IMG/VR virus record: IMGVR_UViG_2634166457_000006
Location: 1-20,300 of that record
Direction: 5' to 3' (one strand)
DNA: 20,300 nt
DNA from: a virus
Lineage: Duplodnaviria; Heunggongvirae; Uroviricota; Caudoviricetes
Shown here: piece by piece, positions 6,066 through 14,768 of the stretch
How the letters are laid out: each line of letters begins with the position of its first letter
Position numbering within the stretch: position 1 is the stretch's first letter
Position numbers and translations under genes: made by a program
The notes under the pieces: model-generated
Told to the model about the DNA's origin: nothing
Database searches by the model: none
What the model saw: the letters and a program-made list of their open reading frames with translations, nothing else

Positions 6066-6551
6066 ATGGCTGAGATTGTTGAAGGAGTGCATTACCTTAC
6101 GGTTGATGATCTTGTTGAAATCAATCGTTCCCTAATTGAATTACAGACGCCAGATGAGCCCGTTGGTGTTCTGAGTCCAGATAACTTAAGTTCTTCTCAG
6201 GCCCGTCCCAGCATGGTTCGATGGTATGAACAGACTAATGACATGTTTGTACTGGCATCGGTATTGATTGAAAGTCTGATTCAGAATCATCCGTTTGCTA
6301 ATGCGAACAAACGAACAGCTATGATGGCTGGTTACGTCTTCTTGTTGTTGAATGGCTATGAGTTAACAGCACCAGGCGATGAAATCGTGGAAATGGCAGA
6401 GGGACTGGCCTGCAAAACCTATACTCGAGAAGATCTCGAGAACTGGTTGTGTTATTGGTCTCGCGCGTATGACAGCCGGGAATTATGTAAAACAGGCGCA
6501 ACTATTGTTTTGTATGAAACTATCAAGCTTAAAATAGAACAGCAAAACTAA
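6066..6551 (+). CDS. Doc (death-on-curing) family toxin, Fic/Doc fold
   Basis: HPFANANKRTA motif matches the Doc signature (P1 Doc HIFNDANKRTA) with similar flanking regions. ATG 6066 chosen; the ORF-track start 6057 is TTG. Confidence 0.75.
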   Translation: MAEIVEGVHYLTVDDLVEINRSLIELQTPDEPVGVLSPDNLSSSQARPSMVRWYEQTNDMFVLASVLIESLIQNHPFANANKRTAMMAGYVFLLLNGYELTAPGDEIVEMAEGLACKTYTREDLENWLCYWSRAYDSRELCKTGATIVLYETIKLKIEQQN

Positions 6552-6565
6552 AGGCGCTTCCAATG

Positions 6566-6595
6566 AAAACCCGCTTCGGCGGGTTTTTTGTTGTT
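6566..6595 (+). terminator. Rho-independent terminator
   Basis: AAAACCCGC-ttcg-GCGGGTTTT hairpin followed by a T-run. Confidence 0.7.
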
Positions 6596-6671
6596 TATTT
6601 TCGGTGAGTATGATGCATCTGGTTGTACTGATGTGGTTGGCTGATTCTGTTATTCAGGTGGCTTATTGCTG

Positions 6672-6699
6672 TTGATTGGTATGTCTTCACGGCTAGAAT
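6672..6699 (+). promoter_or_regulatory. Candidate sigma70 promoter (-35 TTGATT, 16-bp spacer, -10 TAGAAT)
   Basis: Hexamers at 6672-6677 and 6694-6699, positioned after the terminator and upstream of the gene at 6780. Confidence 0.4.
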
Positions 6700-6779
6700 C
6701 GAGGCTCTTAAGTAGCGCGCAGGGAGAAGAGGGATGGACCCCGAAGGGGAAGAGCTATTTATCTGGAAGGATTCTGAAG

Positions 6780-7040
6780 ATGAAAATCGAAGAATTGCGT
6801 GAAATTTTTAGTGGAAATGGCCTCTATGCTGTGCACGTTGAGAATGGCGCTATTGTCAGCCACTGCCGTATTAAATGTTTACAGTCTCAACAAAGGAAGA
6901 GTGGGGCTGCGTTAATTTACTTTGTGGATGGACTAGTGACGGATGGTTTTATTTTGCGTAAAAATGAATTTGTCACATCGTTGCCGTCTCTGAAAGAAGC
7001 TGGGATTAAGGCTGGTTTTTCTGCTTTTGAAGATGAGTGA
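6780..7040 (+). CDS. Hypothetical protein, 86 aa
   Basis: ATG 6780 with GGAAGG SD; the ORF-track start 6666 lies upstream of the predicted promoter. Confidence 0.45.
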   Translation: MKIEELREIFSGNGLYAVHVENGAIVSHCRIKCLQSQQRKSGAALIYFVDGLVTDGFILRKNEFVTSLPSLKEAGIKAGFSAFEDE

Positions 7041-8445: not shown

Positions 8446-8826
8446 ATGACTGAACGCATAGAATTTGTTTTGCCTTACCCGCCCACGGTGAACACCTACT
8501 GGCGACGTCGTGGCAGCACATATTTTGTATCAAAAGTCGGTGAGCGTTATCGCCGTGATGTGGCGCTAATTGTTCGCCAGCAGCGACTGAAATTAAGCCT
8601 GTCCGGAAGGCTGGCGATAAAGATTGTTGCAGAGCCGCCGGATAAGCGCCGTCGCGACCTGGATAATATCCTGAAAGCACCTCTGGATGCGCTGACGCAT
8701 GCGGGACTGCTTATCGACGACGAGCAGTTTGATGAAATTAATATTGTGCGCGGTCAGCCTGTATCTGGTGGACGGCTGGGCGTGAAGATTTACCAGATAA
8801 TGCATGAAGGGCAGGCTAAAAAATGA
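8446..8826 (+). CDS. rusA: Holliday-junction resolvase RusA
   Basis: RRRDLDNILKAPLDALTHAGLLIDDEQ...GGRL matches the RusA signature (E. coli RusA [25 protein letters not shown]). Confidence 0.85.
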   Translation: MTERIEFVLPYPPTVNTYWRRRGSTYFVSKVGERYRRDVALIVRQQRLKLSLSGRLAIKIVAEPPDKRRRDLDNILKAPLDALTHAGLLIDDEQFDEINIVRGQPVSGGRLGVKIYQIMHEGQAKK

Positions 8827-9644
8827 AACTGGAAGATTTACCGAAATACTACTCCCCAAAATCCCCCGGCCTGACTGATGCATCTGCCTCAACGTCAAAA
8901 GATGCGCTGAGTATCACTGATGTGATGGCAGCACAGGGCATGACACAGAATCGGGCTGAGATGGGGTTTTCTGCGTTCCTTGGGAAAATGGGCATCAGTA
9001 TGAATGACAGAGAGCGGGCAACAGAACTGCTGACAGAATATGCTCTCTGTCGGTGTGATGGCGTGGCGGCGTTAAGAAAACTTCCGGCAGAAATAAAACC
9101 GGTAGTGATGCGCATTATGGCTTCGTATGCTTTTGAGGATTATGCCCGGAGCGCGGCGAGCAAAAAACAGTGCCCATGCTGTCGCGGAAAAAAATTTATT
9201 GAAAGTGAGGTTTTTACAAACAAGGTGCAGTATCCGGATGGTAAGCCGCCAGTATGGGCAAAGTGTACAAAAGGCGTGTATCCGTCTTACTGGGAAGAAT
9301 GGAAAAAATTCAGGGAGGTGGTAAAAGTTGTCTGTCCGGAGTGTGGAGGGAAGGGAGATGTATCCGCCGCCTGTAAAGATTGTCGTGGGCGTGGCGTCGC
9401 CATTCATCGTGAAGAGTCGGAAAAACAGGGCGTGCCGGTTTTCAGAAACTGCCAGCGTTGTGGTGGACGTGGTTACGAAAGATTACCGTCAACGAAGGCA
9501 TTCAATGCCATATGTAATGTAACCTGCGCCATTTCTCTTGATGCATGGAAAAAAACGGTTAAACGTTTTTACGATACGCTGGTGGTGCAGTTTGATATTG
9601 AAGAGGCATGGGCAGAGCAACAGCTGAAGAGGGTGACCCGATAG
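8823..9644 (+). CDS. Q: Late-gene antiterminator Q (long type with Cys-rich zinc-binding region)
   Basis: Position after rusA and before a pR'-like promoter and tRNAs; multiple CxxC pairs; ATGA overlap with rusA. Confidence 0.7.
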   Translation: MKLEDLPKYYSPKSPGLTDASASTSKDALSITDVMAAQGMTQNRAEMGFSAFLGKMGISMNDRERATELLTEYALCRCDGVAALRKLPAEIKPVVMRIMASYAFEDYARSAASKKQCPCCRGKKFIESEVFTNKVQYPDGKPPVWAKCTKGVYPSYWEEWKKFREVVKVVCPECGGKGDVSAACKDCRGRGVAIHREESEKQGVPVFRNCQRCGGRGYERLPSTKAFNAICNVTCAISLDAWKKTVKRFYDTLVVQFDIEEAWAEQQLKRVTR

Positions 9645-9786: not shown

Positions 9787-9862
9787 GGCCCTTTAGCTCA
9801 GTGGTGAGAGCGAGCGACTCATAATCGCCAGGTCGCTGGTTCAAATCCAGCAAGGGCCACCA
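9787..9862 (+). tRNA. tRNA with CAT anticodon (Met or lysidine-type Ile2)
   Basis: Manual cloverleaf: acceptor GGCCCTT/AAGGGCC, anticodon loop CTCATAA, T-loop TTCAAAT, encoded CCA. Confidence 0.85.
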
Positions 9863-9867
9863 CCTTA

Positions 9868-9944
9868 CCGCCATTAGCTCATCAGGACAGAGCGCCAGCC
9901 TTCGAAGCTGGCTGCGCGGGGTTCGGGTCCCCGGTGGCGGTCCA
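9868..9944 (+). tRNA. tRNA-Arg (anticodon TCG)
   Basis: Manual cloverleaf: acceptor CCGCCAT/GTGGCGG, anticodon stem CCAGC/GCTGG, loop CTTCGAA, T-loop TTCGGGT, encoded CCA. Confidence 0.75.
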
Positions 9945-9957
9945 TAACCGACACCCT

Positions 9958-10034
9958 GCGTTGTCAGCTCAGCCGGACAGAGCAATTGCCTTCTGAGCAA
10001 TCGGTCACTGGTTCGAATCCAGTACGACGCGCCA
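9958..10034 (+). tRNA. tRNA-Arg (anticodon TCT, reads AGA/AGG)
   Basis: Manual cloverleaf: acceptor GCGTTGT/ACGACGC, anticodon stem ATTGC/GCAAT, loop CTTCTGA, T-loop TTCGAAT, encoded CCA. Confidence 0.85.
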
Positions 10035-11104: not shown

Positions 11105-11989
11105 ATGTCGATTAAACATTACGATGTTGTCAGGGCCGCATCGCCGTCAGACCTTGCGGAAAAGCTGACACAAAAACTGAAAGAAGGCTGGCAGCCGTTT
11201 GGTGGCCCGGTGGCCATAACCCCTTATACCCTGATGCAGGCGGTGACGGCAGAAGGTGATGTGGAGGATGACGTCAGTGGCCCGTCCGGCGGTGAGGGGG
11301 CAGGCTCTGGTGGAGCGGATACCTGTGACACCGCAACCGAAACCGTGCTGTTTTACCGGGCGGCTGATGGCTGGCCTGCAGACCTTGGCTGGACACGGAC
11401 GAACGGAGCCGCAGAGTTCACTGACGACACCGGAGCAGAAAGCGGGAAGGCCCTGCGCATAAGCAAGGATTCAGATGCGGGTGTTTCATGGACGTTAACG
11501 AAAGAGATGCCATCACCGGCTGACCTCCTGACCCGTGGTGGTGTGGTCAGCTGCCGCTTTAAACTGGAAGGCGACCTTGTGGCGAACCAGTACGCGTTTG
11601 CCCTGTACCTTCGTGTCCCGGCAGCCTCATTGCCTGAGGGTGTGACGCTGGCAGAAAGTGGTGGCGCGAACAGCAATCCCTGCCTGCTGGCGTTCTTCAT
11701 ACGGACCGATGCGACCAGAACCAATTTGTATTTCCGCAAACAGAATGACGTCAGTGTCGGGACATATGGTGCCTTTGACAATGAATGGCACACGCTGGAG
11801 CTTCAGTTTGCCGGAAACAGCAGTATTGATGTGACGCCGGTACTTGACGGTACGGCCGGAATGCCGTTCACGCTGACGAAGTCGGCAGTGAATGTTCCGG
11901 AGAATACGTTCACTGTGACAGACACTGCGTCAGCTGCAACTTACAGCACACTGTTTGAGTACGTGACGGTGGAGGTGAATGCAGCGTGA
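11105..11989 (+). CDS. DUF1737-like N-terminal domain protein with a C-terminal beta-rich domain, 294 aa
   Basis: N-terminus MSIKHYDVVRAASPSDLAEKLTQKLKEGWQPFGGP fits the DUF1737 pattern seen in prophage late-region proteins; Gly/acidic linker; C-terminal 200 aa unassigned. GGGAGAAA SD. Confidence 0.55.
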   Translation: MSIKHYDVVRAASPSDLAEKLTQKLKEGWQPFGGPVAITPYTLMQAVTAEGDVEDDVSGPSGGEGAGSGGADTCDTATETVLFYRAADGWPADLGWTRTNGAAEFTDDTGAESGKALRISKDSDAGVSWTLTKEMPSPADLLTRGGVVSCRFKLEGDLVANQYAFALYLRVPAASLPEGVTLAESGGANSNPCLLAFFIRTDATRTNLYFRKQNDVSVGTYGAFDNEWHTLELQFAGNSSIDVTPVLDGTAGMPFTLTKSAVNVPENTFTVTDTASAATYSTLFEYVTVEVNAA

Positions 11990-12023
11990 GCAGAAGCAGA
12001 TGATGCCGTGATGGCAGCAGCAT

Positions 12024-12049
12024 GGCCGCATTAATCGGCCTTTTTTATT
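12024..12049 (+). terminator. Rho-independent terminator
   Basis: GGCCG-cattaat-CGGCC hairpin followed by TTTTTTATT. Confidence 0.55.
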
Positions 12050-12070
12050 GACCGCCCGCAGGGGAGGTGG

Positions 12071-12295
12071 ATGGTGAGAGTGAACAATATATCAGATATC
12101 GCAACGGGGGTTTCTTACACCACCTCCTCGGTCAGTGGTGGTTACTGGCTGCTCCAGTTGCTGGATGCGGTGAGCCCGTCCCAGTGGGCCGGGATTGGTG
12201 TCCTGGCGAGTGTGTTTCTGGGGGTGCTGACGTACCTGACGAATCTGTATTTCAGGATTAAAGAGGACCGTCGTAAGGCGGCGCGGGGAGAGTAG
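12071..12295 (+). CDS. S: Class II holin, phage 21 S21-like
   Basis: [50 protein letters not shown] is near-identical in pattern to S21 as recalled; strong GGGGAGGTGG SD. Confidence 0.8.
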
Positions 12296-12550
12296 TCGAT
12301 GAATAAAAAATACGAACTGGTTGTAAAATGAATATTTCTAACTGAAAAAACGTTCCCTGAGGTGAGAAAAGGTCACAGGCAATCAATAACAGGACGTGAT
12401 GAAAGGTCCTTGCCTTTGTATGCTTTCTCTTTAGATAGCAGCAGATACTGAAAATTTGAGTTGTCGGGGAGTCAGGGGCACAGCTGCGCAAGAGGCGGTC
12501 ATTGTGATTCCATTGATATCCTGTATGCCATGAAGGGCAGGATTTTATGG

Positions 12551-12865
12551 CTACCTGAGCTTTGGTGATAGTAAGTTGAAAATTCGCATTTTTTGCTGAC
12601 ATGCGTAACGAGAATCCCATAAGCAGGGAGGACTTAATTCTTCATTAACCCATGCGTTGATATTATGTTTCAGCCGTTGAAGCATCAGCGGTGTTAATGT
12701 TGTGGTAATAATATCCAGCGTTTTATGTGAGAGTTTACCGTAAGGGTCTGCAAGAATGCTGCTCGTTGCTTCGTTATTGTCCGCCATCTGAAGAAGTAAC
12801 TCTGATTTAACGTTTTCTGTCATGAGTTGTAAAAATCTTCTGCGCAAACTTTCTTTACTGTTCAT
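12551..12865 (-). CDS. Hypothetical protein, 104 aa, reverse-oriented insert between holin and endolysin
   Basis: Only sizeable minus-strand ORF in an AT-rich stretch between two + strand lysis genes; weak SD; no family recognised. Confidence 0.4.
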   Translation of the reverse strand: MNSKESLRRRFLQLMTENVKSELLLQMADNNEATSSILADPYGKLSHKTLDIITTTLTPLMLQRLKHNINAWVNEELSPPCLWDSRYACQQKMRIFNLLSPKLR

Positions 12866-12982
12866 TTATAAGGCTTCATTTGTTGTTATCTGCTGTGTCT
12901 CAAGGGATATGTTTACGAGACCTGCCATGAGTGTTGGATTATATACCTAACATATCAAGAGATTAGAAAACGATAAATCCCC

Positions 12983-13516
12983 ATGAACGGAAAAATCAGA
13001 TACGGCCTGTCGGCTGCCGTTCTGGCGCTGATTGGCGCAGGTGCTTCTGCACCTGTAATTCTCGATCAGTTTCTGGATGAAAAAGAAGGTAACCACACCA
13101 CAGCATACCGTGATGGTGCGGGTATCTGGACCATCTGCCGCGGTGCCATTCTGGTGGATGGTAAACCTGTCTTCCCCGGCATGAAGCTGACGAAGGAAAA
13201 ATGCGCGCAGGTTAATGCCATCGAACGAGATAAGGCGCTGGCGTGGGTGGAGCGCAATATTAAAGTACCACTGACCGAACCCCAGAAAGCGGGTATCGCG
13301 TCATTCTGTCCGTATAACATTGGCCCCGGTAAGTGTTTTCCGTCGACGTTTTATAAACGGATTAATGCCGGAGATCGAAAAGGAGCCTGTGAGGCGATTC
13401 GCTGGTGGATTAAGGATGGTGGGCGCGATTGCCGCATACGTTCAAATAACTGCTATGGACAGGTTATTCGTCGTGACCAGGAAAGCGCATTAGCCTGTTG
13501 GGGGATAGATCAGTGA
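12983..13516 (+). CDS. R: SAR endolysin (T4-type lysozyme with N-terminal signal-anchor-release domain)
   Basis: N-terminal [22 protein letters not shown]-like segment followed by an E...D...T catalytic spacing ([20 protein letters not shown]), as in phage 21 R21. Confidence 0.85.
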
Positions 13517-13980
13517 GCAGAGTCGCCGCGATTATTTATGCTCTGGTTATCTGCATCATCGTCTGCCTGTCGTGGGCGGTCAATCATTACCGTGATAACG
13601 CCATCGCCTACAAAGAACAGCGTAATAAAAAAGTCAGTGAGCTGAAGCAGGTGATCGCCACCATCGCTGACATGCAGCAGCGTCAGCGTGATGTTGCTGC
13701 GCTCGATGCAAAGTACTCGAGAGAATTAGCCAATGCGAAAGCTGAAAATGAAACTCTGCGCGCTGATGTTGCCGCTGGTCGTAAGCGCCTGCGGGTCAAT
13801 GCCAGTTGCTCCGCAGCCGTGCGTGAAGCCACCGGACCCACCAGCGTGGATAATGCAGCCGTCCCCAGACTGGCAGACACCGCTGAACGGGATTATTTCA
13901 CCCTCAGAGAACGGTTGATGACGATGCAGAAGCAACTGGAAGGGGCACAGGAATATATCCGTACCCAGTGCATTCGGTGA
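13513..13980 (+). CDS. Rz: Spanin, inner-membrane subunit Rz
   Basis: (V)[30 protein letters not shown]... closely matches lambda Rz; GTG start overlapping the endolysin stop (the ORF-track start 13498 is TTG). Confidence 0.8.
13733..13918 (+). CDS. Rz1: Spanin, outer-membrane lipoprotein Rz1, embedded in the +1 frame of Rz
   Basis: [20 protein letters not shown] lipobox and proline-rich [14 protein letters not shown]...[13 protein letters not shown] matching lambda Rz1. Confidence 0.75.
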
Positions 13981-14453
13981 TATTTTATTATAGGAATGTT
14001 ACTGATAACGTTAAAATAATTTAACGGAAAAGTCAGTTCCGGACTTTATAGTGTGCTCACATCCTGGCCAAAAACGATTTCTGTGATAAATATTTTGAAT
14101 ATTATTTACAGGCAAATGAAGTGGATAGCATGGATGAAAATATTACAACAGGGTATGAAGCATATGCCCATATTGTATGGACAGAGAAAGCAAAAGCACT
14201 GTACTTCCTTGTGTTGCCACGATACCTGACTGAGATATGATTTTTTTGGTTTTGAGTATATATTTAGCGTTTTTAGTTCAGTAATGGCTTATTCAACAAA
14301 AAACAATAAATAAGGTAATTGTTTTTTTCATTCATTGTTTAAATTGATTTCAGTGTCTCATTTTGCTGTTTTACTATCTATTATTTTTTATTATTATCTT
14401 GTTAAGGGAAGATAAATTCAGGATTGTAGTCAGTAGATAATCGGAGGTCACTT

Positions 14454-14768
14454 ATGCTACATGATCACCTGGCAGAATGTCTGGAGAAAAAAGGATTGTA
14501 CCGGAGAGCAGCTGAACGATGGGCAAAAGTGATGGTACAGCTAAGTGATGACCAGAAAAGGAAAGTAGCGGCACAGAAACGAGCAGAGTGTTTGCGTAAG
14601 GCGCGCCGGACTCCGGTTTCACCGGTGAACCTGACAGAAATAAAACAAGCGGTCAACAGACTACATTCTGAGTTGGGAATGGGATTTGAAGAGCGGCGGG
14701 TATTCCGACGATATAAAGGGACAGGAGAACAGAATACGTCCGGAAACGCGCGGTCAAAAAAATGCTAA
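14454..14768 (+). CDS. PerC-family transcriptional regulator-like protein (Pch-like), 104 aa
   Basis: N-terminal LEKKGLYRRAAERWAKVM resembles the PerC/Pch signature as recalled; strong GGAGGT SD; preceded by about 470 bp of AT-rich non-coding DNA. Confidence 0.5.
   Translation: MLHDHLAECLEKKGLYRRAAERWAKVMVQLSDDQKRKVAAQKRAECLRKARRTPVSPVNLTEIKQAVNRLHSELGMGFEERRVFRRYKGTGEQNTSGNARSKKC

Follow-up and report, generated by a model that had tools for sequence, protein, structure and literature searches.

The DNA analysed here, called the window throughout (20,300 nucleotides), comes from a lambdoid prophage of E. coli and represents its late region. Exact-sequence look-up assigns both ORF104, described next, and the lysozyme to E. 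coli. Its lysis cassette is interrupted between holin and lysozyme by an insert that carries an open reading frame, ORF104, on the strand opposite to the late genes. The features of the window that bear on this insert, and their surroundings, are as follows.

First in the gene order of the window, before Q: DUF968 and RusA genes
8823-9644: Q antiterminator
9787-10034, plus strand: cluster of three tRNA genes, downstream of Q
Between the tRNA cluster and the DUF1737/DUF6645 gene: TerB-like gene
11105-11989, plus strand: DUF1737/DUF6645 gene, 294 aa
12071-12295, plus strand: class II (phage 21 S-type) holin, PF04971, E 7.8e-30
12296-12982: insert between holin and lysozyme, 687 bp
About 12296/12299-12590, plus strand: remnant of a YdfR-family / PHROG 1085 late gene, a pseudogene
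12551-12865, minus strand: ORF104, 104 aa, 12.1 kDa, pI 9.3, PHROG 1853
12866-12982, minus strand: spacer between ORF104 and lysozyme, 117 bp, 36.8% GC, divergent
12897-12901 (GTCTC) and 12917-12921 (GAGAC): inverted repeat, 5 bp per arm with a 15-nt spacer, in the presumed 5' UTR of ORF104
12983-13516, plus strand: SAR-type endolysin (phage lysozyme), PF00959, E 5e-24
13498-13980, plus strand: Rz-type spanin, PF03245, E 6e-49
13733-13918: Rz1-like ORF embedded within Rz, from the ORF list
To the right of a PerC homologue described below: HNH endonuclease, terminase and capsid genes

The genes that flank the insert are of the same type as the pinholin and SAR endolysin genes of phage 21 (S21/R21), namely, a PF04971 holin, a SAR-like lysozyme, and Rz/Rz1. 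The canonical phage 21 cassette has no gene between S and R. E. coli relatives of the holin are annotated as "class II holin family protein", and in RefSeq relatives the start is placed 3-6 codons further in than 12071. The lysozyme has a Gly/Ala-rich N-terminal membrane segment, and its relatives are annotated as lysozyme or rrrQ.

Some features outside the cassette deserve mention in their own right. The three tRNA genes have a CAT anticodon, Arg-TCG and Arg-TCT, and the cluster resembles Stx-phage late regions. The tRNA with the CAT anticodon is called Met by ARAGORN, and its counterpart in RefSeq relatives is annotated as tRNA-Ile. The 294-aa protein encoded at 11105-11989 comprises DUF1737 and DUF6645 without a SASA esterase domain. 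Its relatives at the same position are 654-aa SASA family carbohydrate esterases of the NanS-p type (DUF1737 + SASA + DUF6645), and the window copy looks like an in-frame internal deletion of such a gene. Just 3' of the lysis cassette, a 104-aa homologue of PerC-family transcriptional activators (14454-14768, plus strand) matches PF06069 at E 5e-44; it belongs to the Pch/PerC type that EHEC/EPEC prophages are known to carry. The AT-rich DNA adjoining it (14000-14450) is only 31% GC.

The holin ends at 12295 and the lysozyme starts at 12983, and the two properties of the intervening DNA that a first-pass annotation had recorded, its length of 687 bp and its richness in A+T, both hold. At 40.0% GC the insert falls among the lowest 3% of 687-bp windows; the window as a whole has 51.2%, the holin 56% and the lysozyme 52%. 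GC3 is 0.40 in ORF104, 0.69 in the holin and 0.51 in the lysozyme. The same annotation had singled out the GTCTC...GAGAC inverted repeat, a feature that we have dropped. The insert contains 12 inverted repeats with 5-bp arms, as against 13.9 +/- 4.8 in shuffles, and in the commonest haplotype the left arm reads CTCTC with no compensating change. Since the count is at chance level and one arm is broken in the commonest haplotype, the repeat is rejected as an operator or hairpin and is given no weight in what follows.

ORF104 itself had been placed correctly on the opposite strand. However, its product, for which that annotation recognised no family, does have one: residues 1-102 match positions 57-158 of the 159 in the profile of PHROG 1853 (E 3.4e-46), which is a catalogued phage protein family without a characterised function. 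Homologues that are 33-98% identical all keep a frame of 104-107 codons, and homologue pairs with unsaturated dS give dN/dS values of 0.10-0.20 (Nei-Gojobori). Polymorphism was sampled in 14 distinct 687-bp haplotypes of the window type. Within ORF104, 10 of the polymorphic sites are synonymous (65 sites available) and four are non-synonymous (247 sites), a pN/pS of ~0.1. Site diversity there is 4.4%, whereas the part of the insert to its left has 9.8% and the spacer towards R 14.5%. The frame is disrupted in two of 48 copies. These comparisons indicate that ORF104 is a real protein-coding gene under purifying selection.

The start of the gene is also marked by conservation. The first ATG (12865) and the N-terminal 14 residues are conserved in all homologues, and a conserved Shine-Dalgarno sequence (GAGG/GAAG-like) lies 10-14 nt upstream of that ATG. 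RefSeq/PGAP places the start at an internal ATG (12823), which yields a 90-aa product (for example, 6256-6528 in L001/L002); in distant homologues Met15 is replaced by I, L or V. The conserved ATG at 12865, the residues that follow it, and the Shine-Dalgarno sequence argue that the 104-aa form is the correct one and not the 90-aa form of RefSeq. Two other ORFs in the region were set aside. One of 120 aa (12258-12620, minus strand), which overlaps ORF104, has no match in Pfam, NCBIfam or PADLOC and is treated as spurious. The other, of 42 aa (12822-12950, plus strand), was considered as a holin fragment and rejected, its match being to PHROG 8226 at an E of only 0.09. The only match from an Rfam scan of 11900-13200 was to isrK, within the holin gene and below threshold (16.8 bits; gathering score 50).

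The AlphaFold2 (AF2) model of ORF104 is a five-helix bundle (pLDDT 84, pTM 0.74). The maximum Kyte-Doolittle hydropathy over 19-mers is 0.52, indicating that there is no TM segment, and neither a signal peptide nor a hydrophobic segment was found in the protein. The model is confident, and ORF104 is predicted to be a soluble all-helical protein. Searches for relatives of known function were negative: Pfam and NCBIfam models gave no match, PADLOC-DB 2.0 defence models gave none at E <= 1, Foldseek of the model against BFVD gave nothing at E <= 0.001, and profile searches of PDB sequences yielded no meaningful match. Taken over family, fold and hydropathy searches, no enzymatic, TM or nucleic-acid-binding signature was found in ORF104.

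The family appears to be small and sporadic. When 1.84 billion representative proteins were searched exhaustively with a profile, only 21 matched ORF104, mostly as fragments. The GTDB species-representative genomes that were scanned contained no ORF104 relatives, and a nucleotide search of a phage collection with the insert returned nothing. At least one family member, L009, comes from outside the E. coli genome collection. Literature searches on ydfR/DUF1327, on lysis cassettes and on the relevant accessions turned up no mention of ORF104, and we know of no counterpart to it in the characterised lysis pathway.

ORF104 is not alone in the insert. The first-pass annotation had treated the 687 bp as one acquired gene, but the DNA to the left of ORF104 also holds a decayed gene of the YdfR family. 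On the plus strand, 12299-12331 reads MNKKYELVVK followed by a stop, which is the start of a DUF1327-type gene; in tblastn this peptide is aligned to MKKKYELVVKGI. A blastn alignment against Stx2 phage 86 extends from the holin into 12334. Further along, 12372-12590 (in the frame of 12297) is a decayed PHROG 1085 C-terminal domain with in-frame stops; its 3' end and that of ORF104 overlap. No intact reading frame is present in the remnant, given the stop after codon 10 and the stops in the C-domain. The C-terminal match vanished in tblastn without composition statistics and could have been an artefact of that program. This was rejected with an HMM of the C-domain, which scores 14.6 bits on the remnant, compared with -0.5 +/- 1.2 (maximum 6.2) in 300 dinucleotide shuffles, the best of six frames being taken. 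About 290 bp of the ancestral YdfR-family gene are left and ~550 nt are missing; only ten codons of the DUF1327 domain remain in the window. The density of polymorphism in the remnant, 9.8%, is near the synonymous level in the 14 haplotypes. The results indicate that 12296-12590 is a dead YdfR-family late gene.

What the gene looked like when intact can be seen in Stx2-converting phage 86 (NC_008464), where a YdfR-family protein (gp05) and a reverse hypothetical protein (gp06) are encoded between S and R. Like ORF104, gp06 is 104 aa long and lies in the same slot in the same orientation; the two are 53% identical. The N-terminus of gp05 matches the window remnant at 12299-12331. However, gp05 is intact (268 aa, made up of DUF1327 and the PHROG 1085 C-domain), whereas its counterpart in the window is only a pseudogene. 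The K-12 prophage Qin, with the order essQ-ydfR-rrrQ, has the same S-R slot in the same type of cassette and a DUF1327 gene inside, of which the window keeps the first 10 codons. Unlike the phage 86 arrangement, Qin has only a 103-aa DUF1327 protein, without the C-domain and without the reverse ORF. [quoted passage not shown]

The insert is carried by 628 of 5,426 complete E. coli genomes, at 95-97% identity and on different prophage backbones, and in the loci examined it always lies between holin and lysozyme. Among 91 loci around ORF104 homologues, about 50 have the architecture of the window. In the remaining loci the holin is followed by a PHROG 1085 gene that is intact, its N-terminal DUF1327 being present in some and absent in others, and then by the reverse ORF104 and the lysozyme. 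An intact YdfR-family gene convergent with ORF104 is found in phage 86 and in many prophages. The PHROG 1085 gene, hereafter the partner, and ORF104 are arranged 3' to 3', with anything from a 42-nt overlap to an 18-nt gap. ORF104 members that are 33-40% identical are convergent with the partner too, sometimes overlapping it, and are found beside holins of PF05106 and PF16080. In L009, the pair of partner and ORF104 is upstream of the holin. That relative, which is not from E. coli, also has a HicA/HicB toxin-antitoxin locus (6195-6833) between the Q antiterminator and the PHROG 1085/ORF104/holin block. Comparison of the loci indicates that the ancestral cargo was a convergent pair, consisting of a late-strand PHROG 1085 gene and a reverse PHROG 1853 gene (ORF104). 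In the lineage of the window, the late-strand gene has decayed while ORF104 stayed intact under purifying selection.

A census centred on the partner covered 80 loci, in 77 of which the distance from partner to R could be measured. In 46 of the 77 the partner is present but ORF104 is not, the lysozyme then starting 39-45 nt after the partner; in 27 both are present. Strict coupling of ORF104 to its partner is rejected by this census. In three loci the slot is occupied by an unrelated reverse ORF of 105 aa (PHROG 10490; hhalign probability 1%) and a second small DUF1327-like ORF, and in one by an IS insertion. In L107 (2245-2927) and L119 (3140-3813), the slot from PHROG 1085 to lysozyme holds a 75-aa late-strand DUF1327-like ORF and the reverse PHROG 10490 ORF, and this cargo DNA is 39% GC. 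In the IMG/VR prophage L106, an IS-like insertion lies by an ORF104 homologue and the gap between partner and lysozyme is 1228 bp; the insertion has a 90-aa transposase-like ORF with a CxxC...CxxC N-terminus.

How ORF104 can be lost is seen by comparing L156 with L169: the difference between them is one clean indel of 410 bp, which comprises the ORF104 cassette and nothing else. In the form without the ORF, the final three ORF104 codons and the stop are still there, and the edges of the indel have GATAATC/GATAAATC microhomology. The clean indel, the retained codons with the stop, and the microhomology at the edges make the ORF-less forms look like deletion derivatives of the pair. In these other lineages, a 410-bp deletion would have removed ORF104 instead of its partner.

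Phage 1720a-02 has only 4 nt between S and R; K-12 Qin and the Stx1a phages have the order S-ydfR-R, and many prophages have larger cargo at the junction. Adjacency of the two lysis genes as the normal state, the premise of the first annotation, is thus only partly correct in this phage group. Occupancy of the slot takes at least five states: S directly followed by R, ydfR by itself, the partner by itself, both genes of the pair, or different reverse cargo. Related phages with S next to R, or with different cargo between them, lack ORF104. At this place in the relatives it is frequent but optional, rather than universal. From these alignments, the S-R position is best described as a recurrent landing site for reverse-oriented small genes.

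ORF104 points against the Q-dependent late transcript, and that transcript has to pass over it before reaching R and Rz. A consensus scan of 11900-13200 found no sigma-70 promoter. By inspection, a TATAAT on the minus strand of the spacer (12943-12938) is a candidate -10 element with a poor -35; an alternative candidate is TTGATA (12958-12953) followed after 17 nt by AACACT (12935-12930). The TATAAT is invariant in the 14 haplotypes of the window type, although the spacer is the most polymorphic part of the insert (14.5%). It is changed to TACAAT in the L010 subtype and, unlike in the window, is absent from the spacer upstream of gp06 in the phage 86 subtype. The invariant TATAAT and the conserved Shine-Dalgarno sequence hint that ORF104 may have its own promoter. 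At the other end of the gene, the consensus scan of 11900-13200 gave no terminator-like site on the minus strand downstream of 12551, and the RNA downstream of ORF104 (12570-12296) folds no better than shuffles (z = 0.68).

We favor the view, with a probability of about 0.6, that ORF104 is a moron-type accessory gene residing in a variable S-R cargo slot of the phage-21-type cassettes of E. coli lambdoid prophages. It is ordinary in kind, one more item of lambdoid accessory cargo, and the S-R insert is common and not a one-off. Each of the two ancestral genes survives without the other, so neither depends on the other, and lysis requires neither. ORF104 would be transcribed leftward, its promoter being a weak sigma-70 one within the 117 bp that separate it from R; such transcription would be independent of, and opposed to, Q-dependent late transcription. 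The protein would be made in the lysogen or early, and would be shut off by head-on late transcription after induction. As there is no terminator, the transcript would read on into the remnant and the holin gene, antisense to both. The protein, presumably a small, basic, cytoplasmic protein of five helices, most likely binds another protein or a nucleic acid and acts outside the lysis machinery to the benefit of the prophage or its host.

The moron concept in lambdoid phages is said to have come from Juhala and Hendrix in 2000. Genes of the bor, lom and rex type are lysogen genes that benefit the prophage or host. The bor and lom genes of λ are lambdoid morons, and bor, which neighbours the lysis genes, runs counter to the late operon. 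ORF104 resembles bor and lom in being optional, in lying between genes that are adjacent in relatives (4 nt apart in 1720a-02, and separable by the 410-bp indel), and in its deviant base composition (GC 0.40, against 0.56 and 0.52 in the flanks); it would presumably be expressed from the prophage. In position bor is the nearest analogue, being likewise directed against the late operon beside lysis genes. In contrast to bor and lom, ORF104 has no terminator that we could find, so one textbook feature of a moron is missing, and its promoter candidate is only a weak match to the consensus. It also encodes a predicted cytoplasmic helical protein rather than an outer-membrane lipoprotein, and arrived in a cargo of two genes. 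The idea of a moron, proposed when the insert was first annotated, thus survives as regards an optional, AT-rich and GC3-deviant gene under purifying selection. The promoter that it assumed has candidates by inspection but none in the consensus scan, and it had missed both the pseudogene and the two-gene ancestry.

One set of observations goes against independent cargo. Distant ORF104 homologues (33-40% identical) are still convergent with the partner, in the company of three holin families and even upstream of the holin. The conserved 3'-to-3' pairing hints at a functional link that independent cargo does not explain. ORF104 might regulate the PHROG 1085 protein or the lysis proteins, or serve as an antidote to them, the convergent and overlapping genes forming a mutually exclusive switch; the orphan ORF104 of the window type would then be kept by acting in trans on intact partners in co-resident prophages. 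Consistent with this, every locus that is not of the window type has ORF104 3'-to-3' with the partner, at ORF104 identities from ~35% to 100%, beside holins of three families and at two different places in the cassette, and EHEC genomes often have several copies of these cassettes. However, the partner lacks ORF104 in 46 of the 77 scorable loci, and conversely about 50 of 91 loci, and 628 genomes, have ORF104 with no intact partner, where it is still under purifying selection. Nor does ORF104 resemble an antiholin: it has no TM segment (hydropathy maximum 0.52) and no match to a holin family, and its strand is opposite to that of the late operon. A toxin-antitoxin pair would be expected to co-occur obligately in one operon, whereas these genes are convergent and each is often alone. 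As for the partner, its only PADLOC match is JetA (E 0.045, below significance), and its AF2 model (pLDDT 49) is too poor for a test of an interface. Since loci with only the one or only the other gene are common, and the orphan remains under constraint, we regard a functional link as unlikely.

The pairing can be given a bolder form, in which PHROG 1085 and PHROG 1853 would constitute an undescribed two-component module of the lysis cassette. It could serve as a lysis-timing or abortive switch, with the two halves made mutually exclusive by head-on transcription and ORF104 as the antagonist in the lysogenic phase. Orphans would then be kept for neutralising the late protein of related lambdoid phages, whether co-resident or superinfecting, a form of cross-immunity between prophages. 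This we consider speculative and quite improbable.

The ORF104 element could also act as RNA or by the act of transcription, the reading frame being incidental, if antisense RNA and head-on interference silenced leaky expression of the holin and late genes in the lysogen. The orientation against the late operon, the lack of a terminator between ORF104 and the holin, and the overlap of 3' ends in relatives would all suit such a role. But the frame-specific purifying selection, the conserved start and Shine-Dalgarno sequence, and the confident fold point to a translated product, and the downstream RNA is unstructured beyond shuffles (z = 0.68) and has no Rfam match. Frame-specific selection in particular makes a purely RNA-level role very unlikely.

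Finally, small genes that are reverse-oriented, AT-rich and optional in prophage late regions are often defence or moron cargo, and the S-R slot, in the manner of defence hot spots, can also take a different reverse gene unrelated to ORF104, but an anti-phage or superinfection-exclusion function carried by the prophage has only a slight chance of being correct for a single 12-kDa helical protein that in its orphan form is without a partner, has no PADLOC match, and shows no enzymatic, TM or nucleic-acid-binding signature.

Optional moron-type cargo is therefore the reading that we prefer for ORF104. About one in nine complete E. coli genomes holds the insert, within a lysis cassette that is otherwise well understood, and the carriers include reference EHEC strains of serotypes O26:H11, O103:H2 and O45:H2. 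In their annotation, the RefSeq start codon drops 14 conserved residues of ORF104. The description of the S-R junction as a recurrent cargo slot, with at least five states, should be useful for the annotation of prophages. If ORF104 is expressed in lysogens, it would be another prophage-borne factor in the biology of EHEC/EPEC. If it talks to YdfR-family or lysis proteins, it would add a control on lysis by pinholin and SAR endolysin, and hence on the release of Shiga toxin from related phages.
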